Source: Alphaproteobacteria bacterium (lineage in GTDB: Bacteria; Pseudomonadota; Alphaproteobacteria; Caulobacterales; Maricaulaceae). Taken from it: 64,000 bases of DNA. Under the pieces are notes generated by a model, which was given only the letters and a program-made list of their open reading frames with translations, ran no database searches and was not told where the DNA came from. The DNA lies in the NCBI GenBank assembly GCA_030428405.1, contig JAUIEH010000001.1:5082-69081 (forward strand), written 5' to 3'. Positions 5,587 to 40,514 of the stretch are shown here, one piece after another. Positions within the stretch are counted from its first letter, which is position 1. Each line of letters begins with the position of its first letter. Made by a program: the position numbers and the translations under genes.

Positions 5587-6455
5587 GCGGGTTTGAGCCC
5601 CGTAATGGCCAGCAGCATCTGCGTGATACGCACCGGCACGTTTTGAAAAACTAGCTCCCGGCTATCCGTATCAGTTTCGGGCAGCTTTCCCGAGCATAGA
5701 ACAAGTGCGCGCGCGATCAGTGCCGGTGGATAGAGCGCCCACGGCATGCGCAGACTGCGCGACGCGATATCCCAGCGGACGACCTTCGCCCGTTCGGCAG
5801 CAGCAAGCCTGCCAGCTCTTGGTTCTATCTGCGCCTGGCTGTTGGCGCCCTGCTTCAGAAGATGGACGTGGTCCCAATCGCGCTGGATGCGGAAGAAGCC
5901 GCGCCGCGCCTGCGCCGCCTCTTCGAGGGACGATGCGATCCAAGTCAGCTGGGATCGGGAGAACCGGCTAACCTCGCCGACCCGGCCAGCCACCATCGGG
6001 CATTCCGTTCGCGGCCAGTCCCGAATTTTTGGCAGACATGCCAGCAGCGTGAAGGCAGCATCGCGCTGAAAGGGAATCTTCGCTTCCGCCGCGGCGGCCA
6101 TGAGGTCCGCGTCGCAGGTTCCGATGACCGCGTACACCGATGGACGAGCTACCTGGCACTGTTCAATACAATCGGTGTCCGTGCGTGCGCAGGCAGATTC
6201 CAGCCGCTGTAGCAGTCTCGGCGACCGCGCCCCGCAGAGTACAGCCTTGCACGCACCGGTCTCCTCGCTCTCCGTCATCGCCAGAACCGGTGGCGCTATG
6301 CGCCAGCTCCCGTTGGGCTCTATTTCGGCGTGACCGAGAGCGGAGAAGTCTCTCAGAATCCGCAGTGGCCGTTCATCCGCGACGATTTCGCGCGGAAGGT
6401 CGCCGTCGCGGCCCGAGACGCGAAATGACATCCATTCGAGTAGGATGTCCGTCAT
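5583..6455 (-). CDS. Hypothetical 290-aa protein with no recognisable domain; occupies the DruG position of a Druantia type II-like operon
   Basis: Track ORF 5583..6638. I prefer the internal ATG at 6455 (MTDILLEWMSFRVSG...) because it forms an ATGA overlap with the stop of the upstream gene (6452-6455). Its own stop overlaps the druE-like ATG in the same way. Confidence 0.6.
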   Translation of the reverse strand: MTDILLEWMSFRVSGRDGDLPREIVADERPLRILRDFSALGHAEIEPNGSWRIAPPVLAMTESEETGACKAVLCGARSPRLLQRLESACARTDTDCIEQCQVARPSVYAVIGTCDADLMAAAAEAKIPFQRDAAFTLLACLPKIRDWPRTECPMVAGRVGEVSRFSRSQLTWIASSLEEAAQARRGFFRIQRDWDHVHLLKQGANSQAQIEPRAGRLAAAERAKVVRWDIASRSLRMPWALYPPALIARALVLCSGKLPETDTDSRELVFQNVPVRITQMLLAITGLKPA

Positions 6456-8491
6456 ACCCGCCCCCTCCAAACGCGGCGCGCTGCGTCCTTTGCTGACCGC
6501 CAGGCAGCCCTCGCAGCCTCGGTGTCCGGGCGAATAGGAAGTCGGCGTGTTGCGGCTGACCGGACCGACCTGGCCCAATCCTGATCCGGTGCATTTTTCG
6601 TCCGGGGGCGATCTGCGCTTGTCCCACGGCCGAGCCATAGGACTTTGCCCTGGCCGCGGCGAAGCCCCTTAGACAGGACAAGGAAAGCTGGCCGAAAAGG
6701 CAGGATGCCGATAGCGGCTGGCGCATCCGTGCGGCGGATCAGGGCTTGGATATTGGCCCGTGCCCCAAGCGCCAGCGCGCTCCAACTTGAGTCCCATGCG
6801 ACCACCATGCGCCCAGCGTTGGTGAAGATACGGGCACCGCAGATAGCAGTCCCTGCCCAGGGGGCGCTGTTACCCGATGGTTCGCGCTCAGGATGAGCAT
6901 CCCACGTTTCCCAGCCATCTGCGCCCCCCGGATCAGCGAGGACGGAATAGGTCAATGACGGCCCTGGCACGACGTCGACGAGATGGCTTCCGGGCGTATC
7001 TGAGCCCGGCGCCGTCCAGCTGCCGTCGCTTTGCTGCGTCGCTCGCTGACTGCCGATCTCGACCTCGCAGCCGGCAGGAAGAGGTTCGATCAGGATTTTT
7101 GGAACGTGCCCTTCCGCATACGTATTGCCCCGGACGGCAAGTCCGCCAATGAGCCGAATTTCAGTTGCCACGCCAGGATCAAGGGGCCGCAGGTAGTCCT
7201 CGAGTTGGCGCTCGGGCGAATGTCTGGGGGTGTAGCCCGTGAGTACCGCCCATCCTGCCGGAATGCCTATCCACCCCTGTATTACTTCGGGAAGCGGTGA
7301 TCCTGTGGACGCCGCTGTCTCAAGCACGGCTGGAGTGTCTTCCTCGCGGCAGATGATGGAGTGTTCAACTCGTGAGCTGGCCGCCGGAACGGAGAGCAGG
7401 TCGGGCTCACCTGCTTCGTTCGCAAAAAGATGGATGGAGCGGGCGCTACGGAGCCATTGTAGCTGCTGCGACGGATCGGTGAGCCGGATCTCGGTAGCGA
7501 GAATGTCGGGCGTCCAATCGATATCGACGTCGTCATACCGGATGTCGTCGAACGCACGTACCGGCTCATCGCAAATGCCATCCAGCTCGATCCGTTCAGG
7601 AAGCCCTTCAGGTCGTGAGAGGACGATTGACAGGCGGATCGATTTGCGGTTCGCGTCGATCGCCAACCGAAGCCTTGCTTCGGATTTGCGCAGAGTAGAG
7701 GCGGAAGCCTGACCAGTGGGCGTGCTTTCGGCCGCATTCGCAGTAGCAGCTCTGCGCGCGCCGCGGCGGTCTTTGTGCCGAGCGGGCCGGCGCGGTGGCG
7801 CAGATGGCGGCGGATGCGAGACCGGCGCTCCGCTCGCAGCATCTGAGGATGCTGGCAGCGGCTTGGCGGCGGGCGCATCGCTGGCCGCGTCGACACTCCG
7901 AACGGGCTCGACAGTTGATCGGGTCGCGCGGGAGGACTCACCTGAAGGGGGATGAAGTTGCTCGACTTCTGCCACCGGTGCCCGGGATTCTTCCAACGGC
8001 TTATTGTCAGGCTCGGTGCAATCGCATGTCCGCTCGTCTGCGCCGTCGTTGCAGGTCGGAGGCTCCTCGGGGGTGGCTTCCGCCGCGGTTTGTGGCAGTG
8101 GCTCCTCAAGAAGTGGAGACGCAGGGCCGTCTGCGCGATGATCTAGTGCCTCGCCGCGTTGCTGCTCAACTGCAGATGCGTCCTTTGGGCTTTGCACCGG
8201 CGCGTCTGGAGGTGCTCCTCGGGACCGAGACGGTCCGCTGGCTGGCGGCTTTTCTGGCAAGGTGGAGGGTGATTTGGCGCTGGCGACTTCCCTCGGCACC
8301 GCCGGCTCTGACCTCGCCTTCTCGATCGGGCCGGAAATCTCAGCTGGCGCGTCCGCCTGCTCCGGAAGGGGCTTCGCGGCGGTCTCGCGAGGCTTTCGAT
8401 TCTGGCGCCGCCAATGAACCGCCAGATCAGCCCCTGCGGCTCTCGCTGCTCCTAAAACGGAAAGAACGAAACGGAGCGCGCCAGACAGCAT
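6452..8491 (-). CDS. Hypothetical 679-aa protein. Hydrophobic N-terminus, then a Pro/Ala/Ser/Glu-rich low-complexity region of about 270 aa, then a C-terminal part of about 400 aa that looks globular. Occupies the DruF position.
   Basis: Long ORF in the track. It starts 16 nt downstream of the methyltransferase stop and is coupled to the next gene by ATGA. I recognise no catalytic motif. Confidence 0.65.
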   Translation of the reverse strand: MLSGALRFVLSVLGAARAAGADLAVHWRRQNRKPRETAAKPLPEQADAPAEISGPIEKARSEPAVPREVASAKSPSTLPEKPPASGPSRSRGAPPDAPVQSPKDASAVEQQRGEALDHRADGPASPLLEEPLPQTAAEATPEEPPTCNDGADERTCDCTEPDNKPLEESRAPVAEVEQLHPPSGESSRATRSTVEPVRSVDAASDAPAAKPLPASSDAASGAPVSHPPPSAPPRRPARHKDRRGARRAATANAAESTPTGQASASTLRKSEARLRLAIDANRKSIRLSIVLSRPEGLPERIELDGICDEPVRAFDDIRYDDVDIDWTPDILATEIRLTDPSQQLQWLRSARSIHLFANEAGEPDLLSVPAASSRVEHSIICREEDTPAVLETAASTGSPLPEVIQGWIGIPAGWAVLTGYTPRHSPERQLEDYLRPLDPGVATEIRLIGGLAVRGNTYAEGHVPKILIEPLPAGCEVEIGSQRATQQSDGSWTAPGSDTPGSHLVDVVPGPSLTYSVLADPGGADGWETWDAHPEREPSGNSAPWAGTAICGARIFTNAGRMVVAWDSSWSALALGARANIQALIRRTDAPAAIGILPFRPAFLVLSKGLRRGQGKVLWLGRGTSADRPRTKNAPDQDWARSVRSAATRRLPIRPDTEAARAAWRSAKDAARRVWRGRV

Positions 8492-8507
8492 AGAGAATCG
8501 CTCTTCG

Positions 8508-9737
8508 TCATGGGCGCAGCTGCGGGCCTTCGGCTTCTACGCCCAGAAGGGCACGAATGGCGTTCGAAACGGCGAGCCCCATTAAGGGCGGCACGGCGTT
8601 GCCGACCTGCTTCAGCTGCTGAAGCTCACTACCATAGAACACGAAGCCGTCGTGGAACGACTGCAAGCGCGCCGCTTCGCGTACAGTAATCCACCGATCG
8701 AACCTGGGATGAATCCACTCCGAGAGATCACGGTGCATCTGCGCGAGGATCGTATATGACGGCCTGTCCGGATCGAGCCGCCGCCACTTGTGCGCCCGAC
8801 TTCCGTTCCAGAGATGCGATGGCAGGGAATCTCCCCTCTCGCCCGGCTTGATGGCTTCGACGATTCGCTTCCGACGCTGCTCGATCCCCTTTGTGTGGTG
8901 ATTGTGAAGAAGCCTGCTTCCGTTGAGCTGCGCGCATTTCGATCTGATGCTCAGAAGATATGTTTCGCAGTCGAGCCGCATGAGGCGCTGATATTCGGAA
9001 CATCTGTCTTTCCGGCGTTTCGGGTACGGGAGGGGCCCATCATCTTCAGAAACTGATGAAGGAAGGTCCGAGATGGCTTCGCGGACCGTGACTGGCCGCC
9101 AGCATTTCTGCTCGGTCATCAGGTCGCGGCAAGCATCTTCGAGGCTTGCCTCAAGAGGCAGCCCATCGCGAAGGCCAATGAAAAACACGCGGCGCCGGTC
9201 CTGAGGCACGCCAAAGTCGGAAGCAAGTAGCGCAACGATCGCTGTGCGGAGATATCCCGCCTTTTGAAAGACCTCCAAAATCTGATCCCGATAGTGGCCA
9301 TTGCGCATGGCCACCATGTTGGGGACGTTTTCCATGATGAATGCTTTGGGCGCTAGCGCTTCGACGACGCGAGCGAACTCTCGGTACAGGAGGTTTCTCG
9401 GGTCTCGCAGGTCACGCGGGCCGATCTGGCTGAAACCCTGGCAGGGAGGGCCGCCATAGATCAGATCAATGTCCTCGGCAGCCAGCTCGCCTAGAGTTGG
9501 AATTTCGGGCCTGTCCTCTTTCAGAAAGCTGCGGATATCGCCACAGAAGAGCGGAACATCCGGAAAATTGGCTGAGAACGTCCGGCATGCATGTGGATCG
9601 GCTTCAACCGCGCACTTCATCTCGTAGCCCGCTAGCCTGACACCAGAGCAAAATCCACCAGCCCCGCTGAACAGCGAAACGGCGGTTAAGCTCTCAAGCT
9701 CGTTATCGTCGGCGGCGCTGGCCTTTGCTTCCATCAT
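8508..9737 (-). CDS. DNA (cytosine-5)-methyltransferase (Dcm family); DruM-like first gene of the operon
   Basis: Canonical C5-MTase motifs are present in order: I LFSGAGGF, IV GGPPCQGFS, VI IMENVPNM, VIII QDRRRVFF, X GNAVPP. Confidence 0.92.
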   Translation of the reverse strand: MMEAKASAADDNELESLTAVSLFSGAGGFCSGVRLAGYEMKCAVEADPHACRTFSANFPDVPLFCGDIRSFLKEDRPEIPTLGELAAEDIDLIYGGPPCQGFSQIGPRDLRDPRNLLYREFARVVEALAPKAFIMENVPNMVAMRNGHYRDQILEVFQKAGYLRTAIVALLASDFGVPQDRRRVFFIGLRDGLPLEASLEDACRDLMTEQKCWRPVTVREAISDLPSSVSEDDGPLPYPKRRKDRCSEYQRLMRLDCETYLLSIRSKCAQLNGSRLLHNHHTKGIEQRRKRIVEAIKPGERGDSLPSHLWNGSRAHKWRRLDPDRPSYTILAQMHRDLSEWIHPRFDRWITVREAARLQSFHDGFVFYGSELQQLKQVGNAVPPLMGLAVSNAIRALLGVEAEGPQLRP

Positions 9738-13338: not shown

Positions 13339-13545
13339 ATGAACGTCAATCATACCTCAGAGAATTCGAGCCCATTTTTCAACACGGCCGAGGCCGCCGT
13401 CTATCTACGCATGCGTAAGCGCACGCTCGAGAACATGCGCTGGCGCGGCGAGGGGCCGGACTTCCGCAAGCATGGTAAATGGATCTGCTACCACGTCGAC
13501 GACCTCGAAAAATGGTCGCGGGCGCGCGCGAGAAACGCGCGATGA
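13339..13545 (+). CDS. Excisionase-family / MerR-like helix-turn-helix DNA-binding protein
   Basis: FFNTAEAAVYLRMRKRTLENMRWRGEGPDFRKHGKWICYHVDDLEKW is the typical excisionase-type HTH. Its stop overlaps the next start (ATGA at 13542-13545). Confidence 0.8.
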   Translation: MNVNHTSENSSPFFNTAEAAVYLRMRKRTLENMRWRGEGPDFRKHGKWICYHVDDLEKWSRARARNAR

Positions 13546-14015
13546 GCGAGGCGCTACCGCTCACCGAGGTGACGCTACGGACCGAAGCGAAGGTCCGCCG
13601 CGAGCGCCTGCGCTTCGGCGCGCCCGTCCGTCGTCAAGCAATTTCGAAGCGCCAGCAGCTTGCCTGGTTGGCGCCAGACGCCACGTTCGCCCTCGTTCGC
13701 TGGAGGCGAAACGCCTACGGCACGGTGTCCTGGCGCTTGTTCATCGCGCAGGCCGGGCGGCCAGGCGAGGCGCTCGTCGCCATCCCCGGCGTACGCCCGG
13801 GCGCGCATGCGCTCGCGGTTCTACAGGGCGCTGTGCGCGTGCGCCGTGGCCTGCTGGCTCTGGGGGAACTAGAGCGCGCCGGCGTCAATCTGCTCGACAT
13901 TTCGCCCGCCTTTTGGCGGCGTTTTCAGGAGCGCGTCTTTCAAAAGAAGCCGCTCATTCTACCGTCGCCAAGCCAGGTCGCCTTTGGCTATGCGCGACGA
14001 AAGGCGCTGTCGTGA
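13542..14015 (+). CDS. DUF2840 domain protein (ICE backbone)
   Basis: Sequence is MSEALPLTEVTLRTEAKVRRERLRFG...WLAPDATFALVRWRRNAYGTVSWRLFI. Position immediately upstream of traF is as in related ICEs. It has an ATGA overlap upstream and a GTGA overlap downstream. Confidence 0.7.
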   Translation: MSEALPLTEVTLRTEAKVRRERLRFGAPVRRQAISKRQQLAWLAPDATFALVRWRRNAYGTVSWRLFIAQAGRPGEALVAIPGVRPGAHALAVLQGAVRVRRGLLALGELERAGVNLLDISPAFWRRFQERVFQKKPLILPSPSQVAFGYARRKALS

Positions 14016-14539
14016 AGCGCAAATCCCAACGGATTTCCGCTCTGATCGCGGTCGGATTCGTGCTGATCGCCGCCGCGTCCGCGATCGAACGGCGGCCCGT
14101 TCTTCTCTATAATCCGAGCCCGAGCGCGCCGCGCGGGCTCTATGTCGTGCGCCCATCTGCGACAGCGGAACGCGGCGATCTCGTCGCCGCGCGGCTGCCC
14201 GAATGGGCCCGCGAACTAGCGTCCGAGCGAGGCTACTTGCCCTCCGGACTACCCGTCATCAAGACGGTTTGGGCCGTCGCCGGCGACCGCGTTTGCGCCG
14301 AGAACGGAAGCCTGCGCGTCGCTGGCCGACCGGCCCTTATCGCCCTCGAATCCGATCGCGCGGGACGCACGATGCCGCGTTGGAGCGAGTGCCGGACGCT
14401 CCAGAACGGCGAGGTTTTCCTCGCATCTACCCAAGTCGATGAGTCCTTCGACGGGCGCTACTTCGGGCCCGTCTCCGCAACCAACATACTTGGACGCGCC
14501 GTGCGCGTCTGGCCGCGCGAAGGGACGCAGCGCCCGTGA
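14012..14539 (+). CDS. traF: Conjugative-transfer signal peptidase TraF (S26 family)
   Basis: This is the C-terminal 175 aa of track ORF 13472..14539: N-terminal TM helix, then NPSPSAPRGLYVV...GDLV...SFDGRYFGP, an S26 peptidase pattern. Start is GTG 14012, overlapping the DUF2840 stop. Confidence 0.8.
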   Translation: MKRKSQRISALIAVGFVLIAAASAIERRPVLLYNPSPSAPRGLYVVRPSATAERGDLVAARLPEWARELASERGYLPSGLPVIKTVWAVAGDRVCAENGSLRVAGRPALIALESDRAGRTMPRWSECRTLQNGEVFLASTQVDESFDGRYFGPVSATNILGRAVRVWPREGTQRP

Positions 14540-14775: not shown

Positions 14776-16707
14776 ATGAGCGATAACGACTACAACGAGT
14801 TCCGCCCGCGCGTCGGCCGCATCCGCAGCCTCGGCGACGGCCGCGCTCGGACGTATCTATCGCGCGTCGCGAAGGCCGTGAGCCGCGCGGGCGGCGGGCC
14901 GCGCCTGTCTGCCGCCTACGCCGCCGGCAGCGGCTTGCCTGCACGCAGCTGGAAGGTCTCTCGCCGCGCGATCGTGAAGGCGCGTGTCGTCAGGCTCACG
15001 CCGACCGGTCTCGCGCGCCAGGCTGCGCACCTCGCCTACATTCAGCGCGACGGGGTGAGCCGCGCGGCGGGCCCTGCGCACCTCTACAATGGCGGCTCGG
15101 ACGAGGCCGACGGCGAGGCTTTCGCCGAACGCTCCCGCGGCGACCGCCATCAGTTCCGCTTCATCATCTCGCCCGAGGACACGCGCGAACTCGGCGAACT
15201 CAAGCCCTTCGTGCGTGATCTCATGAAAGAGATGAGCCGCGATCTCGGCACAGAACTCGATTGGGTGGCGGCGGATCATTTCGATACAGACCATCCCCAT
15301 ACGCATGTCGTGCTGCGCGGCAAGGAGCAGTACGGGAACGATCTCGTCATTCCGCGCGCCTACATGTCCCACGGCTTCCGCCGCCGCGCCTGTGAGGCGC
15401 TCACGCGCGAGCTCGGGCCCGAGACGGCGGTCGAGGCCTACGAGAAGCTCGTCAGCGAGGTGAAGAAGGACCGGCTCACGCGCATCGACCGGCGCTTGCT
15501 GGCGGCGGCGCGCGATCACGTCGTGACGCTCGATGTGCGCCACGGCGACGGCCCGCTCTTAGCCTCGCGCCTCAGGCATCTGGAGGACAAGGGTCTCGCC
15601 GCGCGCGCGGGCGAGGGCTGGCGGCTCGCGCCGGAACTCGAAGCGACGCTGCGGCGCATGGGCGAGCGCGGCGACATCATCAAGACGCTGCACCGGTGCC
15701 TGCATGAGCGTGGACTCGCGCGTCCGCTTGCGCCCGACGCCGTGTGGGACGGACGCCGGCCCGAGGCGCGCGTCTTCGCCGGCCGGCTCGTCGCGCTCGG
15801 GATCGCAGACGAACTCACCGACCGCGCCTATGCGATCGTCGACGGCTTCGACGGCAAGGCGCGCCATGTCGATCTGGGTCTCGAGCCGCCTAGCAGCACG
15901 ATCAGCGAGGGCGCCCTCGTCGAGGTTCGCCCCAATGCGCCCAAGGGGCTGCGCAAGGGCGACCTGACGATCGCCCAGATCGCGGAGCGCTCGGGCGGGC
16001 TCTACAGCGAGGAGCGCCACCGCGCCTTCGATCCGGCCGCGCGCGCCGAGTTCATCCGCGCCCATGTGCGCCGGCTGGAGGCGCTGCGCCGGGCGCGGCT
16101 CGTCAAGTGTGGGCCCGAGGGCGACTGGACCATTCCGGCGGACTACGCCGAGACCGCCGCAAACTACGATCGCGCGCAGGCGGCGCGCGCGCCGGCGCGG
16201 CTGGCGCTAATCACGGACATGTCCTTGTCAGCGCAGGTCGCCGTCCACGACGCCACCTGGCTCGACCGCCGCCTCGCCGGCGAGGGCGAACGCGGCCTGG
16301 CCGAGATCGGGCTCGGCCGCGAGGCGCGTGAGGCGCTGACGCTGAGGCGGCGTTGGCTCGTGCGCGAAGGGCTCCTCGCCGACGACGCGCAAGGCCGCAA
16401 GCTGCCGCAGGAGAGCCTGGCGGAGCTGCGCCGGCGCGGGCTCGAGCGTATCGGCGCGTCACTGTCGCGCGATCTCGGACTGCCCTATGCGCCCGCGCAG
16501 GACGGCGAGCGCATCGACGGGACCTATGTGCGCGCGGAGATGTCGGGCAAGGGCAAGGTCGCCGTCATCACCCGCGCGCGCGACTTCACGCTCGTTCCCT
16601 GGCGAGAGGTGCTCGACCGCAATCTCGGCAAGCGCGTGTCGGGCGTTGTGCGCGGGGACGCGATCTCGTGGGATCTGACGCGGAAACGGGGGATAGGGCC
16701 GACGTGA
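14776..16707 (+). CDS. Relaxase/mobilisation nuclease with DUF3363 domain (VirD2-like, RlxS-type ICE relaxase)
   Basis: His-triad region DHFDTDHPHTHVVLRG. N-terminus EFRPRVGRIRS...AHLAYIQRDGV is typical of this relaxase family. Size is 643 aa. Confidence 0.88.
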   Translation: MSDNDYNEFRPRVGRIRSLGDGRARTYLSRVAKAVSRAGGGPRLSAAYAAGSGLPARSWKVSRRAIVKARVVRLTPTGLARQAAHLAYIQRDGVSRAAGPAHLYNGGSDEADGEAFAERSRGDRHQFRFIISPEDTRELGELKPFVRDLMKEMSRDLGTELDWVAADHFDTDHPHTHVVLRGKEQYGNDLVIPRAYMSHGFRRRACEALTRELGPETAVEAYEKLVSEVKKDRLTRIDRRLLAAARDHVVTLDVRHGDGPLLASRLRHLEDKGLAARAGEGWRLAPELEATLRRMGERGDIIKTLHRCLHERGLARPLAPDAVWDGRRPEARVFAGRLVALGIADELTDRAYAIVDGFDGKARHVDLGLEPPSSTISEGALVEVRPNAPKGLRKGDLTIAQIAERSGGLYSEERHRAFDPAARAEFIRAHVRRLEALRRARLVKCGPEGDWTIPADYAETAANYDRAQAARAPARLALITDMSLSAQVAVHDATWLDRRLAGEGERGLAEIGLGREAREALTLRRRWLVREGLLADDAQGRKLPQESLAELRRRGLERIGASLSRDLGLPYAPAQDGERIDGTYVRAEMSGKGKVAVITRARDFTLVPWREVLDRNLGKRVSGVVRGDAISWDLTRKRGIGPT

Positions 16708-16930
16708 CTGCATGCTTCTCTACAGCGATCGCGCCGAGTCTGGCGGCAGAGCTTCGGGAGCAGGCTTAGATTTCCAAATATGCCGTACAGACTCCGTCAC
16801 AACCGAATCACCAATATCCTACGACGTCACATTCTGCGGCAATTGCTGCGCCAGCCTGCCTGTGGCGAGGCACGGTGCGGACGCAGCCAAACTCAGTTAG
16901 GCAAGTGAGAGAAACGCATCACACAGAACA

Positions 16931-17824
16931 ATGACGGACTCGAACACAACCTACAGTGATCAGCAATTGCTCGACTTCATCTTGGCGATGGAGGACGCAC
17001 TACTAGAAGAAGGTATGAGTCCGGAGGCTCGAGGCTTCGAACTCCCTCATCGTGTTCTGGACCAGCTCGGCTACGTGTCCTATTTCACGACCGGCCCTGA
17101 TCAGCCAGCGGTCCTGGAACGCCTTCGGGCGATTCACGAGCGCCTCTACCGACCGCACGACGTCGGCATGGGAAGACTTCACTCCGGCGCATTCATGTTT
17201 CGTGGCATCGCGGTCCACGTGTTTGTGCCGATCGTTTTTGGTCAGGTGCGTGTAAGGCCGTTCGAATGGTGCGATCTCAACGAAATGCAAGTGCAATGGC
17301 TTCAATCAAATGCCTTCCACGTCAAAGCGTACCTCGCGACGTTCGCAGATATTTTTGATTTTTGCGCCGGAATTCATCCGTTTGAAGGCTACGCGCCGCC
17401 AAATGACGCTGCGAAACGTTGGTTCGACCTTGCCTCGTTCCAGCTACAGGGCGCGAGCGCGATTCTTTGCGCGCACTTGGACGGGCGTGGAGCTACTCAA
17501 AGCGCATTGCTAGGCTCTGAGCTCGCGCTGAAAGCGCCTTTGGCCGCAAATGGTGTGGCGGAGACCGAGCTGAAGAAGCTCGGTCATGATCTCAAGGGCC
17601 TCGCGGACGAAGTGGCGGCGCGATATTCGGACTTCGACCTGCCGGCAGTGCAACAGCGGGTGGCGCTACTCCCTCCCTACGTCGCAAATCGCTACGCACC
17701 GGTTCAGCCTTCCCTCTTCGAGGCCGGCGAGATCGTTGTGGCGGCCCAGTTTGTAGCTGCTGAGGCGATGCGCGCAGTCACTGGCGGTCGCGTTCAAGCA
17801 AAAGCAGGTGCCTTCGCGTCGTAG
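16931..17824 (+). CDS. Hypothetical 297-aa protein with a C-terminal HEPN-like helical region
   Basis: The segment SALLGSELALKAPLAANGVAETELKKLGHDLKGLADEV matches the classic HEPN pattern (E-alKA-L...G......HDL--L). GC content is lower than in the flanking backbone genes. Confidence 0.6.
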   Translation: MTDSNTTYSDQQLLDFILAMEDALLEEGMSPEARGFELPHRVLDQLGYVSYFTTGPDQPAVLERLRAIHERLYRPHDVGMGRLHSGAFMFRGIAVHVFVPIVFGQVRVRPFEWCDLNEMQVQWLQSNAFHVKAYLATFADIFDFCAGIHPFEGYAPPNDAAKRWFDLASFQLQGASAILCAHLDGRGATQSALLGSELALKAPLAANGVAETELKKLGHDLKGLADEVAARYSDFDLPAVQQRVALLPPYVANRYAPVQPSLFEAGEIVVAAQFVAAEAMRAVTGGRVQAKAGAFAS

Positions 17825-18072
17825 GTGCGCTGCGGGATCAGCAGAGTCGCGGACGATTTCTTATTGCGCCCGTGTGCGGTGGCAACGGCGCTCGATCGGC
17901 ACCGCCGCTGAGTTCTGTCTCGACGCGTAGGATCCCGTCTATGTCTCCGCATCTTCGCTGTTGCGGTACTCGTCGAATCGCATGGGTTGACCTCTCCAAG
18001 CGCCTGCTCCAGCGACTGACGACGGCGAGGTAGTGATATGACGCGGGGGAGTCAGATTCGGCTCAAAATGCT

Positions 18073-19266
18073 CTAGCTCTGCGTTTTCCTCAGGGCTTCG
18101 ATTTCCGACGGGTTGGAATACGTCGCGATCAAGAAGTCGACCCATGCCTGCGAATACGTGTAGTCGCGGTGGGCTGAGTGATAAACGCAATAACGCTTGT
18201 CAGTCTGTCCCGGTTGCTTTGCGCCAGACGCGGGACGGGCATTATGGCGTTTCCAAGCTAGCTGGTGGCAATGAGAGGTGAAGTCTGGAACAGCCTTTCG
18301 TACAATTCTCACTACAGACAAAGGCTTGTGAGGAAAGTCTTCGTCAGAGATTCGGGATTTGACAAGTACGTTGTGGATATTTTCGCCCTCTTCGCTATCG
18401 GGGCTGATGAATCTAATGTTTGAGCCAGACCTAGAAGATCCGTCAAGCGTGAATACAATCTGAAATTTGTATTCAACTGCTCCGGGATCATCCGGATCAA
18501 TATCGGAGTTCAGGCGGGCGTCGAGGGCCATAATATTTGCGGGGACGGCCAAATCTTGTGTTTCGGATATTTGCATCAAGCTTACGCGAGAGAATTGCAG
18601 GGCAAAACCCAAGTTTGATTGAAGCGAAAGCATTGGTCCAAAAAGGTCACATATAGTGTTGTCAAAATTTACACAGCACGCTTGAAACAGGCCAAGCCAA
18701 TTATTGTCAGATAGGCCGAAGCGGCTGTGCTCAACGGCGTCCCTTATCTCTTTGATCGCTACCAAATTTCTTCGAACGTTGTTCGACAATGGCGTCGTTT
18801 GGCGTGAAAGGAGTTCATAAAGGGAAACGGTCTTCCCATCTGGCCTAGCAATGCTCTCCCCCAGGGTCCGGTCATGGTATTCGTGCATGAGATATGTCCA
18901 AGCAATAATCGCGAGGACGGAAAACTGCTCGGTTCTGAATTTGAGGTGTGGGCTATTGAATATGTGCACGGCCATCATCATGGCCTCGCGAGCACGAATG
19001 AGGCGTTCGTCGTCAACGTCATTCAATCCAGTTATTGGATCGTATAGTGTTTTCTTAAGTTTGAATAATTCAAGTTCATCGCTTGTAGCTGCCTCTTGCG
19101 AGTCGTCGGACTTAACTTCAGTTATGCGTGCACTGTTAATTGTTGCGTTGCGGCCACGATTGACTAGGTCTTGGATGTCTTGGTTGCGCATATCCTCGGC
19201 TAGCATGGCCTTCACTGCGCGTTTCTCGTCCTTGGTTAGACTTCCCTCCTTCAAGCGCTTAGCCAT
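18073..19266 (-). CDS. 397-aa HEPN-motif protein, DUF3644-like by my recollection; candidate abortive-infection or defence RNase
   Basis: REAMMMAVHIFNSPHLKFRTEQFSVLAIIAWTYLMHEY, followed by an Rx4H motif in AIKEIRDAVEHSRF. AGGAG lies 8 nt upstream of ATG 19266. This is the most AT-rich gene in the window. Confidence 0.75.
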   Translation of the reverse strand: MAKRLKEGSLTKDEKRAVKAMLAEDMRNQDIQDLVNRGRNATINSARITEVKSDDSQEAATSDELELFKLKKTLYDPITGLNDVDDERLIRAREAMMMAVHIFNSPHLKFRTEQFSVLAIIAWTYLMHEYHDRTLGESIARPDGKTVSLYELLSRQTTPLSNNVRRNLVAIKEIRDAVEHSRFGLSDNNWLGLFQACCVNFDNTICDLFGPMLSLQSNLGFALQFSRVSLMQISETQDLAVPANIMALDARLNSDIDPDDPGAVEYKFQIVFTLDGSSRSGSNIRFISPDSEEGENIHNVLVKSRISDEDFPHKPLSVVRIVRKAVPDFTSHCHQLAWKRHNARPASGAKQPGQTDKRYCVYHSAHRDYTYSQAWVDFLIATYSNPSEIEALRKTQS

Positions 19267-19507
19267 GTAGTGCTCCTGACGCGTCCCAGTAAAATCTGTT
19301 CACGAGGCTCACAATATCAGCTTCCGGTGGATCGGGCTCGATGCGTACGACAAGCGATTCGCGAAGCCGTTCTTGAGGAACGAATCGGGGCCCGCCGTTC
19401 CCCCTGAGGCAACAGCGTCGGAGCACAAAATAAGTTTTGTGTGTAGAGGGGGCGCTCAGCGCCGCCAGCTGCAAAAGGGCGGCACCAAATTCAGCGTACT
19501 CATTCAT
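19259..19507 (-). CDS. Possible 82-aa upstream partner ORF overlapping the HEPN gene start by 8 nt; no recognisable domain
   Basis: Track ORF. Its stop (TAA 19259-19261) overlaps ATG 19266 in the string ATGGCTAA. It has a weak RBS and no recognisable domain. Confidence 0.25.
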   Translation of the reverse strand: MNEYAEFGAALLQLAALSAPSTHKTYFVLRRCCLRGNGGPRFVPQERLRESLVVRIEPDPPEADIVSLVNRFYWDASGALHG

Positions 19508-19644
19508 TCCCGATAGCCACTCACCGTGCTCATTTCGTCATCCATTGTGCACGTATAACCGCTTGAAAACACTCTGCAAACCCGCGTTGACGCGGGTACC
19601 GTCCGCGCATGAGGCTCAGCTCCGGAAAGGGGACTTCAGCCATC

Positions 19645-21621
19645 ATGACGCCGACGAAAATCCTCATTGGGCAGATCGCGCTCGTGTTCGGCGTCGTGCT
19701 CGCCGGCGTCTGGTTCGGCACGCAGTTCGCGGCGTCCGAGCTCGGCTACGCGGCTGAACTCGGCGCGCCCTGGTTCAGCCTCGGTGCGACGCCGGTCTAC
19801 AAGCCTTGGCGGCTGTTCGAATGGTGGTACGCCTACGAGGCCTACGCCCCGGCAATCTTTGCACGCGCCGGCGCGATCGCGGCCGCCGGCGGAGTCGCGG
19901 GGGCGGCGGTCGCCATCGCCGGCTCGGTGTGGCGGGCGCGCTCTGCCAAGAACGTCACCACTTACGGCTCGGCGCGCTGGGCGCGGGTCTCCGAGATCGC
20001 CAAGGCGGGGCTGTTCGCACCGGCGGGCGTCGTGCTCGGGCGCTATCGCGACAGGTATCTGCGCCATAACGGGCCCGAGCATGTCATGGCCTTCGCGCCG
20101 ACGCGCTCGGGCAAGGGCGTGGGGTTGGTCGTTCCAACGCTGCTGACCTGGCGCGACAGCGCGCTCATCCACGACATCAAGGGCGAAAACTGGGAGCTGA
20201 CGGCGGGCTGGCGGTCGAGCTTCTCGCGCTGCCTGCGCTTCGATCCCACCGATCCCAAGAGCGCGCGCTACAATCCGCTCCTCGAAGTGCGGCGCGGGCC
20301 GAATGAAATTCGCGACGTCCAGAACATCTCCGACATCCTCGTCGATCCCGACGGCGCGCTCGAGCATCGCAATCACTGGCAGAAAACCGCGCAGGACGTG
20401 CTCGAGGGCGCGATCCTGCACGTGCTCTATGCGGAAGACGAAAAGACGCTCTCGCGCGTCGCCACGCTCCTCTCCGATCCGGATCGGCCGATCCTCGAGA
20501 CGATCGCGGTCATGGCGAGGACGCCGCATCTGGGATCGCGCGGCGTCCATCCCAAGGTGGCCAAGGCCGCCCGCGCGCTCGAGAACAAGTCGCCCAACGA
20601 GCTCTCCGGCGTCCTCTCCACAGTCATGACCTATCTCGGACTCTACGCTGATCCGGTCGTGGAGCGTGCCACCGCGCAGTCCGACTTCCGCATCGAGGAC
20701 CTCGTTACGGGCGAGCGGCCGCTGTCGCTCTACCTTGCCGTGCCGCCGTCGGACATCTCGCGCACGCGCCCGCTCGTGCGGCTGATGCTCAACCAGATTG
20801 GCCGCCGGCTCACCGAGCGGCTTGATCTCGAGCGCCGCCGGCTCCTGATGATGCTGGATGAGTTCCCGACGCTCGGACGGCTCGACTTCTTCGAGACGGC
20901 GCTCGCCTTCCTCGGCGGTTATGGCGTGCGCGCCTTCCTAATCGCTCAGTCGCTCAATCAGATCGAGAAGGCCTACGGGCCCAATAACGCCATCCTCGAC
21001 AACTGCCATGTGCGCGTGGCGTTCGCGACCAACGACGAGCGCACGGCCAAGCGCATATCGGACGGGCTCGGGACGGCGACCGAGATGCGCGCCCAGCGCA
21101 ACTATGCCGGCCATCGGCTCGCGCCTTGGCTCGCCCACGTCATGGTCTCGCGCCAGGAGACGGCGCGGCCGCTGATGACGCCCGGCGAGGTCATGCAGCT
21201 CGACGCGCGCGACGAGCTCGTCATGGTCGCCGGCTCGCCGCCGATCCGCGCAGGCAAGCTCCGCTACTACGAGGACCGCAACTTCCTCGATCGTCGCCTT
21301 GATCCGCCGGCGGACGCGAGCGACGGCGCGCCGGTCGCGGACCACGACTGGTCTGATCTGACGATTACTGCGGCTCCGGCGCACGAGGGCGATCGGCCGG
21401 ACTTCGACGAGGATGACGGCGGCTTGCGCCAGGCGCGCGCACCCGAGCGCGAGCCCGACGCGACGGTCGCGCCCGAACGCGAGAGCGACGTTGCGGCCAT
21501 CCCGGAGGCCGGCGACGGCGACGCGCCGCGTGACGCCAGGACGCTCAAACAACTCACGCCGGTCCAGCGGGCCCACGGTCTCAACGCCGGCGCCTCGCGC
21601 GATCCCATCGAGGAGTTCTGA
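19645..21621 (+). CDS. traG: Type IV coupling protein TraG (VirD4 family)
   Basis: MTPTKILIGQIALVFGVVLAGVWFGTQFAA is the typical TraG N-terminus. Walker A is FAPTRSGKGVGLVVP; Walker B-like is LLMMLDEFPTLG. The track ORF begins at 19609; I prefer the internal ATG 19645. Confidence 0.9.
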   Translation: MTPTKILIGQIALVFGVVLAGVWFGTQFAASELGYAAELGAPWFSLGATPVYKPWRLFEWWYAYEAYAPAIFARAGAIAAAGGVAGAAVAIAGSVWRARSAKNVTTYGSARWARVSEIAKAGLFAPAGVVLGRYRDRYLRHNGPEHVMAFAPTRSGKGVGLVVPTLLTWRDSALIHDIKGENWELTAGWRSSFSRCLRFDPTDPKSARYNPLLEVRRGPNEIRDVQNISDILVDPDGALEHRNHWQKTAQDVLEGAILHVLYAEDEKTLSRVATLLSDPDRPILETIAVMARTPHLGSRGVHPKVAKAARALENKSPNELSGVLSTVMTYLGLYADPVVERATAQSDFRIEDLVTGERPLSLYLAVPPSDISRTRPLVRLMLNQIGRRLTERLDLERRRLLMMLDEFPTLGRLDFFETALAFLGGYGVRAFLIAQSLNQIEKAYGPNNAILDNCHVRVAFATNDERTAKRISDGLGTATEMRAQRNYAGHRLAPWLAHVMVSRQETARPLMTPGEVMQLDARDELVMVAGSPPIRAGKLRYYEDRNFLDRRLDPPADASDGAPVADHDWSDLTITAAPAHEGDRPDFDEDDGGLRQARAPEREPDATVAPERESDVAAIPEAGDGDAPRDARTLKQLTPVQRAHGLNAGASRDPIEEF

Positions 21622-22115
21622 TGCGCAAGCCGAAGAAGATACGCCTCTGCACGCGCGTCTCGCCCGACCTGCACGCCAAGCTCGTCTCGGTCGGCAAGCG
21701 CGACGGCGTCAGCCAGGCCAATGTCGTCGAAGCGGCGCTTCACGGCTTCTTCTCTTTCGAGCGCGACGACCAGCGCGACGCCTCGATCATCCGCCGGCTC
21801 GACCGGCTGACGCGCCAGTTCTCGCGCCTCGAGCGCAACGACCTCGTGCTCTCCGAGACGGTGTCGCTGCTCACACGCTTCCTGTTCACGGTGACGCCGC
21901 AGCTGCCGCAAGACGACTTCGCTGCCGCTCAAGCAGTGGCCGAGAAGCGCTTCGACGATTTCGTCGAGCGCCTGGCCCAGGACCTCGCAAAGGGGCGGCG
22001 CGTGCTGCAGGCCGCCTTGAACGACGTCGTCCCCGACATCGATGAGTTCGCGACGCTCGACGAGGCCGATGGCGAGCGCGCTTCGAGCAATGGCGGAGGC
22101 GGCGCCCATGTCTGA
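21621..22115 (+). CDS. Ribbon-helix-helix (CopG-family) protein of the trb operon
   Basis: The N-terminus KKIRLCTRVSPDLHAKLVSVGKRDGVSQANVVEAALHGFF is RHH-like. It sits between traG and trbB as in related ICEs. Its ATG overlaps the traG stop (TGATG). Confidence 0.7.
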   Translation: MRKPKKIRLCTRVSPDLHAKLVSVGKRDGVSQANVVEAALHGFFSFERDDQRDASIIRRLDRLTRQFSRLERNDLVLSETVSLLTRFLFTVTPQLPQDDFAAAQAVAEKRFDDFVERLAQDLAKGRRVLQAALNDVVPDIDEFATLDEADGERASSNGGGGAHV

Positions 22116-23091
22116 CCGCCGCCATCCGGTCTCCCGCGCCCGCGAGCGCGCCATGCTGCGTTCGGCCTTCGGGCCGGCGATCGCCGCCGCGCTCGACGAT
22201 CCATCGGTCATCGAGGTGATGGTCAATCCCGACGGCCTCTTGTGGCTTGATCGTCAGCAAGAGGGGCGAGCGTGCACGGGCCAAGTGATCGGCGCGGCCG
22301 AGACCGAGCGCGTGATCCGTCTCGTCGCCAGTCACATCCGCGTCGAACTCTCGCGCGACGCGCCTATCGTCTCGGCCGAGTTGCCCGGAAGCGGCGAACG
22401 CTTCGAGGGCGTCCTGCCGCCGGTATCAGCGGGCCCGTGCTTTTCAATCCGCAAGTCCGCGGGCGGCGTCATCGGGCTCGACCAATACGTTACCTCCGGC
22501 GTTATGTCCGAGGCTCAAGCTGAAGCGCTGCGCTCGGCCATTCGCGAACGCGCTAACGTGCTCGTCGCCGGCGGCACGAGCTCCGGTAAGACGACGCTGG
22601 CGAACGCGCTCCTTGCCGAGATCACGGCTTGCGAAGAACGTGTCGTAATCTTGGAGGACACGCGCGAGCTTGTGTGTGACGCGGAGGACGTGGTCGCGCT
22701 GCGCACGCGGGCCGGCGCGGTAACGCTCGCCGATCTCGTGCGCTCGACCCTGCGTTTGCGCCCCGACCGCATCATCGTCGGCGAGGTGCGCGGCGGGGAA
22801 GCCCTCGATATGCTCAAGGCCTGGAACACGGGCCATCCCGGCGGAATTGCGACGCTGCACGCCAATTCCGCGCCTGCCGCGCTCACGCGTCTCGAACAGC
22901 TCATTCAGGAGACGGTCGTTCACGTGCCGCGCGCGCTCATCGCCGAAGCGATCGACGTGATCGTGTTCCTCGCCGGCCGCGGCGCCGCGCGCCGCGTCGA
23001 CACGCTCGCGCGCGTCGAGAACCTGACGCCCGCCGGTTACGCGCTCGCCGACCTCGCCACCGCAACGGATCGCAAGGGAGAAACGTCATGA
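22108..23091 (+). CDS. trbB: P-type conjugative transfer ATPase TrbB (VirB11 family)
   Basis: Walker A is VAGGTSSGKTTLANAL; also ILEDTRE, IIVGEVRGGEALDML and TGHPGGIATLHA. GGAGG lies 8 nt upstream of ATG 22108. Confidence 0.92.
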   Translation: MSDRRHPVSRARERAMLRSAFGPAIAAALDDPSVIEVMVNPDGLLWLDRQQEGRACTGQVIGAAETERVIRLVASHIRVELSRDAPIVSAELPGSGERFEGVLPPVSAGPCFSIRKSAGGVIGLDQYVTSGVMSEAQAEALRSAIRERANVLVAGGTSSGKTTLANALLAEITACEERVVILEDTRELVCDAEDVVALRTRAGAVTLADLVRSTLRLRPDRIIVGEVRGGEALDMLKAWNTGHPGGIATLHANSAPAALTRLEQLIQETVVHVPRALIAEAIDVIVFLAGRGAARRVDTLARVENLTPAGYALADLATATDRKGETS

Positions 23092-37100: not shown

Positions 37101-37403
37101 CAGACCTAGCAAAGTCGAGGCGAGGGGATAGGTGACGAGGTCTTCAACGACCTGTGGACTTTGGCCGGGGAAATCCGTGCGGATGATGACCTGCGTGTCG
37201 GACATGTCGGGAATGGCGTCGAGCGGTATGCGCTCGACCGCGCGCACGCCCGCCACCAGAAGCAGCGCCGCGCCGAAAAGGACGAGAAGCCGATTGCCGA
37301 CCGACCACGCGATCAGCTTGGCGACCCAGCTTTCGGTCGGATCTCTAAGTTCGGTATCAGTGGTCATGAGTAAGCGCAGCCCGCGCCGCGTCTTCATCGT
37401 CAT
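34170..37403 (-). CDS. cusA: CusA-type (monovalent Cu/Ag, HME4) RND efflux pump
   Basis: About 1070 aa with 12 TM helices. The signature GGIAIAIGAMVDASIVMVEN matches the Cu/Ag-type AIGxxVDxxIVxxEN motif. The start is ambiguous: 37403 overlaps cusB by 47 nt, and ATG 37367 (MTTDTELRD) is an alternative. Confidence 0.9.
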   Translation of the reverse strand: MTMKTRRGLRLLMTTDTELRDPTESWVAKLIAWSVGNRLLVLFGAALLLVAGVRAVERIPLDAIPDMSDTQVIIRTDFPGQSPQVVEDLVTYPLASTLLGLPRTQDVRGFSMFGTSFVYVVFEDGVDQYWARSRVVEALSRIQGDLPSSARPQLGPDATGVGWVFQYALIDRTGERDLADLRAVQDWFLRFELAAVPGVAEVASVGGYVREYQVLLDPNRLRAFDIPISRVIEAVRAASRETSGRIIEQAETEFFVRSYGYVSDRDDLEQVVVAAVEGTPIRLGDLGRVVEGPGLRRGVTELNGEGEVVAGIVVMRSGENALTVIEAVRERLQDLEDGLPDGVEIITVYDRAPLIEGAVDYLRHKLFEEGIAVALVVFIFLLHVRSAFVAIITLPLGVLAAFIVMQAQGVTANIMSLGGIAIAIGAMVDASIVMVENANRRLAELPDDASPQDGNAARLRAAQEVGPGLFFSLLIITASFLPVFALTGESYRLFSPLAYTKTYAMAFAAGLSVTLVPVLIMLLVRGRQRPETANPIMAVLIAVYRPILRAALRFRWLTLAFTLGLLASAAIPLTRLGGEFMPPLYEGELLYMPTTLPGVSVSRARDILAQTNRLIMTVPEVELAFGKVGRADTATDPAPLSMIETWIRLRPRDEWRVGVTPETLIEELDARVRMPGLVNSWGYPIRIRMDMISTGIRTPVGIKITGPNLETIERIAAEVEAAVRSVPGTRSAFADRTTGGRYLEINPDRNALARHGVDLGTVQMVVETALGGLPVAESVQGRERYDIMIRYDRPFRETAGALDDILVPTPAGAHVPLGELASIEFADGPPVIRSENARLTGWVFVDVVGRDIAGYVADADARVDEEVELPADYAIDWSGQFEQMIEARERLSFAIPAAIAIIFVLLMLHFGRLDRTLLIMASLPFALIGGLWSVWLAGYDMSVAVAVGFIALGGIAVETAVVMLIYLDQQVRETSPADRGALTKAVMSGAVMRLRPKLMTVLAIFAGLAPIFFTDGLGADVMRRIALPMVGGMITTTVLTLVVLPVLYFVWEARRQRLAGATSPPADDTHLAQSLGA

Positions 37404-40298: not shown

Positions 40299-40325
40299 GA
40301 AGCCAGTCAGCTGGGCATAGTCGAG

Positions 40326-40352
40326 ACTACGCGGTTCGATGACCGATCCCTC
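40326..40352 (-). promoter_or_regulatory. Island promoter motif, site 1 (cusCBAF-like operon)
   Basis: Minus strand reads GAGGGA-N14-GCGTAGT. It ends 27 nt upstream of ATG 40298. Confidence 0.55.
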
Positions 40353-40514
40353 GCTCTCGCCGCGGTAACATTTCGTTAATGACTGGCCGTTCAGGCGACC
40401 ACACACGTTTGCGCCAAATCGCGTGATGCGCGGCGTGTCTCACGCACTCTCGAATGGCGGCGTCGCGCTCGAACTCCTTTAGCTCGAAGTTTTGCAGTCA
40501 AGCGCACCGACGGG

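Follow-up and report, generated by a model that had tools for sequence, protein, structure and literature searches.

What is carried at the junction between the relaxase gene and the coupling protein gene of an alphaproteobacterial integrative and conjugative element (ICE), and do the 2 genes found there belong together? The junction lies in a stretch of 64,000 nucleotides, here called the window, from the forward strand of contig JAUIEH010000001.1 of an Alphaproteobacteria bacterium of the family Maricaulaceae (assembly GCA_030428405.1, positions 5,082 to 69,081). A first-pass annotation, made from the sequence letters alone, had described an AT-richer tract with 2 convergent HEPN-like genes between the relaxase gene, rlxS, and traG, and had interpreted it as a single horizontally acquired defence or addiction module in an ICE cargo slot, encoding proteins that matched no defence system it could name. 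We refer to the 2 open reading frames (ORFs) as ORF-A (297 amino acids, plus strand) and ORF-B (397 amino acids, minus strand); both were found as described, and both encode conserved proteins. The insert was probably gained by horizontal transfer and occupies, as cargo, the variable rlxS-traG slot of a conjugative element of the ICEMlSym type (rdfS-traF-rlxS and traG-trb), and its genes encode 2 unrelated, independently mobile single-gene HEPN proteins, each most likely a stand-alone defence effector. Of this reading, the analysis shows the composition of the insert, the domain assignments, the independence of both genes and the variability of the slot.

The segment from 16708 to 19608, 2.9 kb in length, fills the whole rlxS-traG junction. 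Its GC content in 400-bp sliding windows ranged from 0.46 to 0.62 over 16.6 to 19.6 kb, compared with 0.65 to 0.75 in the flanks (0.67 to 0.75 at 15.4 to 16.8 kb on the left), and reached 0.70 again at 19.6 kb. The GC content and the GC content at third codon positions were 0.714 and 0.868 for rlxS, 0.583 and 0.631 for ORF-A, 0.490 and 0.540 for ORF-B, and 0.687 and 0.869 for traG. The lowest two 1-kb windows in the 64-kb stretch (GC 0.502 and 0.506) were both located at 18.0 to 19.5 kb, and only 5 of the 1-kb windows, taken at 500-bp steps, fell below 0.58. The insert is compositionally foreign, with sharp edges at the rlxS stop codon and the traG start codon, and the AT-richness that had been judged by eye was confirmed both by the sliding windows and gene by gene. 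Profile matches likewise identified the flanking genes as those of a relaxase and a coupling protein. A search for repeats revealed no flanking direct or inverted repeats and no transposon, cassette or other mobile-element signature in the insert, and a scan for promoters and terminators gave no sites beyond shuffle expectation, the promoter model being restricted to the sigma-70 consensus of the enterobacterial type. The single weak terminator-like hairpin, at 17896-17911, did not exceed shuffle expectation. It was also noted that a contig of 4436 bp from an independent sequencing-run assembly (Logan ERR3428548, L092) contained ORF-B, a small 82-amino-acid ORF next to it and part of ORF-A with 100% identity; the same insert is therefore present in at least one other public dataset.

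The protein encoded by ORF-B matched the Pfam family DUF3644 (PF12358) with an E-value of 2.8e-38 and a score of 131.8 bits (cutoff 27.6), the alignment covering residues 88-252 and model positions 2-179 of 183. The motif RDAVEH, which the first-pass annotation had recognised as an Rx4H motif of DUF3644/HEPN type, is present, and its residues R175 and H180 were invariant in an alignment of 25 homologues, in accordance with the Rx4-6H signature. The structure predicted with AlphaFold2 (AF2) had a mean pLDDT of 74.5, with good values for residues 1-220 and 306-397 and values below 50 for residues 221-305. Top matches to this model in the PDB, obtained with Foldseek at probabilities of 0.89 to 0.99, were to HEPN toxins and domains and included AF_0298 (2hsb, 0.99, TM-score 0.67 normalised to the target), HepT (6m6w, 0.97), SO_3166 (5yep, 0.94), 1wol (0.91) and Csm6. 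The E-values of about 0.4-1.6 for these matches are explained by the alignment of only one of 3 domains, and the model predicts the four-helix up-down bundle of the HEPN fold. Homologues of ORF-B formed more than 1000 clusters with a constant length of about 397 amino acids.

The protein could also be placed among named families, contrary to the earlier statement that neither protein matched a defence system that could be named. In the PADLOC collection, 8 models of PDC-S19 were matched over nearly the full length (best E-values 2.5e-44 for residues 83-347 and 1.2e-43 for residues 88-392), and at E <= 1 no models other than those of PDC-S19 were matched, while NCBIfam gave no match to ORF-A or ORF-B. 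The sole DUF3644 protein in the 95-kb region searched in Escherichia coli 042, WP_001222856.1 (L099:18188-19501), is presumed to be EC042_2821, its record being without an old locus tag. The ORF-B protein aligned to it in BLASTP with an E-value of 7e-9 and about 30% identity over the 98-amino-acid HEPN core, where RDAVEH was aligned with RDQAVH, and hhalign of the ORF-B family profile against it gave a probability of 95.4% and an E-value of 1.9e-8 over 229 columns. By these comparisons, ORF-B encodes a new member of the known, computationally described DUF3644/EC042_2821 HEPN family.

Two further regions of the ORF-B protein flank the HEPN domain. The N-terminal 60 residues were strongly conserved among the 25 homologues (G8, L10, E14, R27, Q29, D30, N36, R39, T42, N44 and R47), as was much of the C-terminal third. 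Three helices were predicted for residues 12-53 with a pLDDT of about 90, and a weak profile match was obtained to the LuxR-type helix-turn-helix (HTH) domain of EsrB (E 0.11), which suggests that the N-terminal domain is probably an HTH. The C-terminal domain, which had previously been left without identity, probably corresponds to the restriction endonuclease (REase)-like domain of the EC042_2821 family (PF18740), for which the match was sub-threshold (residues 355-389, E 1.4e-3, 19.6 bits, cutoff 24.9). Such a score is typical of the family, since the presumed E. coli 042 type protein scored only 18.4 bits and 12 of the 25 close homologues matched PF18740 at E <= 0.01. No clean PD-(D/E)xK motif was seen in the alignment of the homologues. 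Searches of PDB sequences with the ORF-B and ORF-A family profiles yielded nothing significant, the best leads being the EsrB HTH mentioned above and, for ORF-A, the proteins TT1696 and M156R discussed below.

The E. coli 042 gene was located directly after the integrase of an island in ssrA, the transfer-messenger RNA gene, and beside a DNA methyltransferase gene (L099:16913-21559; NC_017626.1 3011913-3016559). Genes for a MobQ relaxase, TraD and DotA/TraY are present on the same island, and this neighbourhood indicates that the presumed founding member of the family is likewise cargo of an integrative mobilisable element.

The protein encoded by ORF-A gave no direct match in Pfam, PADLOC or NCBIfam. 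A word-indexed search recovered 30 clusters of homologues only, and an exhaustive profile search identified 471 representative clusters at E <= 1e-3, of which 122 at E <= 1e-30, mostly of the full length of about 290 amino acids. Among 66 diverse members, R34, E197, K201 and H219 were invariant, while G86, G104, D143, L198, P248, R254, Y255 and Q273 were conserved in at least 90%. In a Pfam scan of these members, 27 of 66 matched the HEPN family PF05168 (best E-value 1.8e-7) at model positions 4-107 of 117 and in the C-terminal half of the proteins, and no other family recurred. The AF2 model (pLDDT 87.8, pTM 0.85) had HEPN proteins as its best-probability PDB matches, namely 1wol (probability 0.94, target-normalised TM-score 0.69, rmsd 3.6 A across 127 aligned columns) and 4nqf (0.72). 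The E-values were about 1, as the alignments spanned just half of the query. The family profile was aligned end to end with the HEPN protein TT1696 (1ufb) at an E-value of 0.31. We conclude from the model that the C-terminal half of the protein is predicted to have the HEPN fold.

The string ELALKAPL...KKLGHDLKGL...NRY, located at 17519-17695 on the plus strand and already quoted in part in the first-pass annotation as HEPN-like, carries the signature ELxLKA...GH[DN]L...NRY of the HEPN-T group. The suspected HEPN-like domain was thus borne out by the PF05168 matches of the family members and by the fold matches, but the canonical histidine of the Rx4-6H motif was absent: R254 was retained in at least 90% of the family, with no histidine at positions +5 to +7 (RYAPVQP). 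Members of PF05168 that lack the motif histidine have been described to have "a conserved H elsewhere" (Anantharaman 2013 Table 1, PMC3710099), and the invariant H219, E197 and K201 fit this subgroup.

The N-terminal domain of the ORF-A protein contains helices and a conserved beta-hairpin, H84-x-GAFMFR. In the close subfamily, Y73, R74, D77, H84 and the string GAFMFR were additionally conserved. No fold match was obtained for this domain with Foldseek in the PDB or in the viral library BFVD, and no match in Pfam. Residues ~62-122, across the hairpin GxxHxGxFMFRD, gave a non-significant match (E 0.085) to the S1/OB-fold protein M156R, from which the domain might be an S1-like RNA-binding element. 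A nucleotidyltransferase of the minimal type (MNT) was considered for the N-terminal domain and rejected, the G[SG]...DxD pattern being missing and no Pfam or fold match being found. The ORF-A protein thus combines a known effector domain with a partner in a new architecture, and none of the resources searched describes its family.

An alternative reading is that the 2 genes form one functional module, for example a defence system of two components or a pair of the toxin-antitoxin or addiction type. They are neighbours in a single 2.9-kb insert, both encode HEPN domains, and HEPN proteins are well known as the toxin component of toxin-antitoxin systems (PMC3710099). However, their convergent orientation means that they cannot be co-transcribed, their GC contents differ by 9 points, and a profile-profile comparison of the 2 families gave no relationship (probability 0.3), the HEPN domains being not detectably close in sequence. 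Furthermore, co-occurrence was examined in 12 independent contexts, 7 of ORF-A homologues and the rest of ORF-B homologues, and these contexts never shared both genes: a DUF3644 gene was found near the ORF-A homologue in 0 of 7 contexts, and no ORF-A homologue was found near an ORF-B homologue in the chromosomal, ICE or plasmid contexts. There was no conserved partner gene across the 7 ORF-A contexts, no NTP_transf_2-type (MNT) gene beside ORF-A or its homologues in them, as MNT-HEPN systems would have, and no MNT-type or other antitoxin gene beside either ORF in the insert. A single module is barely credible in view of the missing co-occurrence, which largely refutes it. While the foreign composition and the variable slot uphold the earlier proposal of horizontally acquired ICE cargo, ORF-A and ORF-B are 2 separate single-gene cargos rather than one module, because they do not co-occur elsewhere, differ in GC content and are convergent.

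The contexts in which the homologues are found differ between the 2 families. Recognised defence genes were located within 8 kb in 5 of the 7 ORF-A contexts, and mobile-element or defence genes in all 7. The neighbours were DruA, transposases, DUF4238 and HsdR (L001); a transposase island (L002); a DEAD helicase, an Eco57I-type methyltransferase and a serine recombinase (L004); MmeI, HigBA and 2 integrases (L006); HEPN ApeA and 2 integrases (L007); HEPN AbiU2, an N6 methyltransferase and a ribbon-helix-helix antitoxin (L096); and IS21 and a DEAD helicase (L097). We also noted Trypsin_2-type serine protease genes just upstream of or near ORF-A homologues (L002:6976-7803, L003:3154-3981 and L096:5580-6494), which, in 2 independent contexts, could be a coincidence or an occasional partner. 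The homologues of ORF-B were found singly among housekeeping genes (L009, L010), on plasmids (L093) and in ICEs (L062, L079). The close homologues formed AT-rich islands in their own hosts, with GC contents of 0.435-0.48 vs 0.62-0.65, which is consistent with continual horizontal movement.

To place the insert among related elements, as the first-pass annotation had proposed, we scanned 185,579 species genomes for the relaxase and identified 80 related loci, of which 53 had traG downstream on the same strand. The distance from the end of the relaxase gene to the start of traG varied from 79 bp to 9 kb across these 53 elements, compared with 2.9 kb in the window. The slot was near-empty in 4 loci (79-139 bp), had a length of ~0.55-0.85 kb in 4, 1.2-1.9 kb in 22 (mostly Bradyrhizobium), 2.5-5.4 kb in 15 and 5.8-9 kb in 8. 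An ORF-A homologue was present in 0 of the 80 related loci and a DUF3644 gene in 2 (L062 and L079), and neither ORF is a backbone gene; conservation of both as backbone genes had been named beforehand as the outcome that would speak against cargo.

A census of the slot, comprising 103 ORFs from 35 elements, identified GajA of Gabija (3 ORFs, E 1.5e-225), SMODS of CBASS (3), patatin (2), OLD-TOPRIM (2), UvrD (2), LmuB-like (Lamassu-like) SMC ATPases (6), AAA_15/21, Fic (3), RES (2), M78 peptidases (3), NTP_transf_8 (3), Tle1-like lipases (4) and some transporters. The variable gap and the census together mark the rlxS-traG junction as a hotspot for cargo in which defence and toxin-type genes are plentiful. 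The toxin-type genes among them (RES, Fic, AbiEii-like) give some weight to the idea that one or both genes of the insert act in stability or addiction and benefit the ICE itself rather than defend the host, for example by killing or arresting cells from which the element has been lost, as do the toxic nature of HEPN RNases as effectors and the location inside the conjugation gene cluster of the ICE. We regard this as improbable, since neither gene has a cognate antitoxin gene, members of both families are found singly in a variety of settings outside ICEs, close ORF-B homologues are single chromosomal genes away from mobile elements, and genuine defence systems are found in the slot as well, such as components of Gabija and CBASS.

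Several genes at or near this junction in other elements resemble those of the insert. In Parvibaculum indicum, a gene directly after the relaxase gene in the rlxS-traG slot (L062:9958-11244, plus strand) encodes a DUF3644 protein (PF12358, E 1.1e-52) with about 29% identity to that of ORF-B; it lies on the opposite relative strand and has a GC content below that of its flanks, and it looks like an independent recruitment of the family to the slot. In L079, a DUF3644 gene was located upstream of, and close to, the relaxase gene. In Brevundimonas diminuta 470-4, a stand-alone HEPN-like ORF of 145 amino acids (ELALKA...GHSLE; L088:5335-5772, plus strand) fills a 548-bp rlxS-traG gap; it matched the HEPN half of the hidden Markov model (HMM) of the ORF-A family with an E-value of 1.9e-8 and no Pfam model.

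The recruitment of DUF3644 genes to the slot and to the vicinity of the relaxase gene bears on a more specific role for ORF-B, namely that of an anti-plasmid weapon of the ICE that clears or excludes competing conjugative plasmids and is not primarily directed against phages. The Ishtar genes of Acinetobacter baumannii (Ist1 and Ist2) are single genes that cause loss of plasmid RP4 (Poire et al. 2026, bioRxiv 10.64898/2026.07.06.735840); their products consist of an N-terminal DUF3644 or DUF4145 HEPN domain and a C-terminal mixed alpha/beta domain, and they are patchily distributed and horizontally transferred (bioRxiv 10.64898/2026.07.06.735840). The gene for the presumed EC042_2821 is also carried by an integrative element, together with genes for MobQ, TraD and DotA. 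Yet the relationship to Ishtar is established at the level of the shared Pfam domain, the ORF-B protein has an additional HTH-like domain at its N-terminus of which the description of Ishtar makes no mention, HEC-08, as the other DUF3644 relative with a tested function, acts against phages, and the IncP-type TraG/Trb system of the ICE itself implies that self-targeting would have to be avoided. A primarily anti-plasmid role is unlikely, although we rate it above the other alternatives.

Under the preferred reading of 2 stand-alone defence effectors, we infer RNase activity, a trigger and a defence phenotype for both proteins, as follows. The ORF-B protein would be an immune RNase whose HEPN site (R175/H180) is held inactive as long as no foreign element, whether a phage or a plasmid, is sensed, with the HTH-like and/or REase-like domains as presumed sensors of foreign nucleic acid or protein; once active, it would cut RNA and block either replication of the invader or translation in the host. 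Genetic precedents among its relatives are provided by HEC-08, whose anti-phage activity depends on the histidine of the Rx4-6H motif (bioRxiv 10.1101/2024.01.29.577857), and by Ishtar with the loss of plasmid RP4. By analogy, the target may be either a phage, as for HEC-08, or a plasmid, as for Ishtar. The ORF-A protein would be a second, independent conflict or defence effector, in which the N-terminal domain may serve as the sensor or regulator of the HEPN-T domain and the active site would be a non-canonical E/K/H/R/Y site composed of E197, K201, H219, R254 and Y255. Alternatively, it could be a non-catalytic RNA binder.

A related idea is that the genes are inert or non-catalytic passengers, with ORF-A encoding a regulatory or RNA-binding HEPN protein or one of the genes being decaying cargo without a present selective role. 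Such non-catalytic HEPN proteins, for example MtlR, have been described (Anantharaman 2013, PMC3710099), ORF-A lacks the canonical Rx4-6H histidine, and no promoter-like sites were found in the insert. Both ORFs are nevertheless intact and full length and have kept all family-invariant residues, the conservation of E197, K201, H219, R254 and Y255 among sequences that are 20-50% identical argues for a functional site, and the promoter scan covered the enterobacterial-type consensus only. Passengers of this kind are very unlikely.

A number of observations weigh against the reading of 2 defence effectors and were considered together. For ORF-B, the close homologues are often alone among housekeeping genes, outside defence islands, and the REase-like assignment of the C-terminal domain is sub-threshold in a region where the AF2 model is poor. 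PDC-S19 is explicitly a candidate only. For ORF-A, the protein itself has no Pfam HEPN match, even at E <= 5, the Foldseek E-values are about 1, and without a histidine 4-6 residues past R254 it may be non-catalytic. Its family is absent from PADLOC, the scan of the 66 relatives having given only one marginal match, to PDC-M60A with an E-value of 0.0084. Finally, no sites resembling the enterobacterial-type sigma-70 consensus were detected in the insert.

If both lines are pursued to their end, a wider proposal can be formulated: that ORF-A founds a previously undescribed single-gene HEPN defence family of ~470 clusters with a new sensor domain and an E/K/H/R/Y site instead of Rx4-6H, and that ICEs of the RdfS/RlxS type use the rlxS-traG junction as a dedicated site for immunity genes directed against phages and other mobile elements, to which DUF3644 (Ishtar-like) genes are recruited repeatedly to clear rival plasmids from the host of the ICE. 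We put this forward tentatively, and in its joint form it is doubtful. Its elements are nonetheless of interest one by one. ORF-B adds to a family for which experiments have only recently begun to support a role in immunity, against phages for HEC-08 and against plasmids for Ishtar. That a second DUF3644 gene has independently reached this slot suggests that such genes are carried by ICEs as weapons or gifts when mobile elements are in conflict. ORF-A represents a sizeable unannotated family that travels with defence islands and is a cheap, testable defence candidate, and the rlxS-traG junction is a practical place for mining defence genes in alphaproteobacterial ICEs. Current understanding is not overturned by these results, since defence cargo at ICE hotspots and lone HEPN effectors are already established themes.

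The remaining features of the insert and of the backbone are listed in Table 1. The 2 small ORFs of the insert both look spurious. The sole match to the 82-amino-acid ORF was the identical sequence in L092, and it was absent upstream of the close ORF-B homologues; it is probably not a gene. Its overlap of 8 nt with ORF-B resembles an arrangement for translational coupling.

Table 1. Coordinates of the insert features and of the flanking conjugation genes, given as positions in the window.
Feature	Position	Strand	Length or residues	Basis or remark
RdfS-like HTH_17 gene	13339-13545			Upstream of rlxS
S26 TraF gene	13472-14539			Upstream of rlxS
rlxS, RlxS-type relaxase, left boundary	14776..16707	+		NF041267 relax_RlxS E 4.5e-207; Pfam DUF3363 E 6.8e-113 and relaxase nuclease domain
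Small ORF, doubtful gene	16712..16900	+	62 aa	No family match; no homologue in any fetched locus
ORF-A, N-terminal domain of unassigned fold fused to a putative classical HEPN (PF05168-like) domain	16931..17824	+	297 aa	
ORF-A N-terminal alpha+beta domain	16931..17392	+	Residues 1-154	Conserved R34, G86, G104, D143
ORF-A predicted HEPN domain	17393..17785	+	Residues ~155-285	E197, K201, H219, R254, Y255
Spacer between convergent stop codons	17825..18072		248 bp	ORF list
ORF-B, HTH-like, HEPN (DUF3644/EC042_2821) and REase-like C-terminal domains	18073..19266	-	397 aa	
ORF-B C-terminal region, including putative EC042_2821-type REase-like domain	18076..18510	-	Residues 253-397	PF18740
ORF-B HEPN domain	18511..19005	-	Residues 88-252	Pfam DUF3644
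ORF-B Rx4H catalytic-type motif RDAVEH	18727-18744	-	R175...H180	Translation and alignment
ORF-B N-terminal three-helix domain	19087..19266	-	Residues 1-60	Conservation and AF2
Small ORF, doubtful gene	19259..19507	-	82 aa	No family match; end overlaps ORF-B start by 8 nt
traG, IncP-type coupling protein, right boundary	19609..21621	+		NF010450 E 0, 1041.8 bits; Pfam T4SS-DNA_transf E 7.1e-102
TrbB (T2SSE) gene	22042-23091			Downstream of traG

The backbone is of the ICEMlSym (RdfS/RlxS) type, with an rdfS-like HTH gene, traF and rlxS in this order and an IncP-type traG/trb set; the order rdfS-traF-rlxS is that of ICEMlSymR7A (PMC11963761). No tRNA gene was found within the 64-kb window, and the integrase and the attachment sites were not located. 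Between traG and trbB, an ORF of 164 amino acids (21621-22115, plus strand) had no Pfam match; from where it lies, it may encode a small regulatory protein or an accessory protein of the Trb system. A gene for a C-5 cytosine DNA methyltransferase (8508-9737, minus strand; PF00145, E 1.3e-62) adjoins an ORF of 679 amino acids without a Pfam match (6452-8491). This region (6452-9737, minus strand) lies in a second patch of lower GC content (9.0-10.0 kb, GC 0.573), and the pair may be restriction-modification (R-M) or orphan-methylase cargo. Downstream of the trb genes, on the minus strand at 34170-40406, a CusABC-type resistance-nodulation-division heavy-metal efflux operon was identified, with an AcrB-family pump, an HlyD/CusB adaptor with a heavy-metal-binding domain and an outer-membrane factor, and is presumably further ICE cargo.

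Comparison with known systems places the ORF-A protein closest to the classical HEPN-T/PF05168 proteins of MNT-HEPN systems, such as TT1696 (1ufb) and ST0689 (1wol), with which it shares the predicted fold and the signature; as in many PF05168 members, the motif histidine is missing and a conserved histidine is located elsewhere. It differs from them in that there is no adjacent or fused MNT; instead, it has a conserved N-terminal domain of ~150 amino acids and belongs to a family of ~290-amino-acid proteins that is not included in Pfam or PADLOC.

For ORF-B, 4 systems were compared. PDC-S19 is one of 145 "guilt-by-embedding" candidates in PADLOC, termed "untested phage defence candidates" (Payne et al. 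2024 preprint), and the PDC systems are defined by their embedding in BREX, DISARM or type I R-M loci (Payne et al. 2024 preprint). No paper was found in a literature search for "PDC-S19". ORF-B resembles it in the HMM matches over nearly the full length and in being a single gene, but it is not embedded in a BREX, DISARM or type I R-M locus. HEC-08 consists of a DUF3644 HEPN domain and zinc fingers, and mutation of the HEPN histidine abolishes its defence (bioRxiv 10.1101/2024.01.29.577857). The DUF3644 HEPN domain with the Rx4-6H motif and the single-gene organisation are shared with ORF-B, whereas the ORF-B protein has a putative REase-like C-terminal domain, an N-terminal HTH-like domain and no cysteine clusters, and is set apart by the description of HEC-08. 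The similarity to Ishtar (XZW63086.1 for Ist1 and MGQ1310977.1 for Ist2), likened here by description only, lies in the Pfam domain type and the single-gene architecture, while the HTH-like domain at the N-terminus is additional in ORF-B. The EC042_2821 HEPN family was defined with a "novel REase (EC042_2821_CTD)", in which CTD denotes the C-terminal domain, fused to HEPN, and with an N-terminal winged HTH in some members (Anantharaman et al. 2013, PMC3710099). Although ORF-B is located in a slot of the conjugation cluster of an ICE and not in an R-M operon, its protein resembles this family in the HEPN domain with the Rx4H motif and the carriage on mobile or defence DNA, and probably also in the REase-like C-terminal domain, for which the match is sub-threshold, and in the HTH-like N-terminus.

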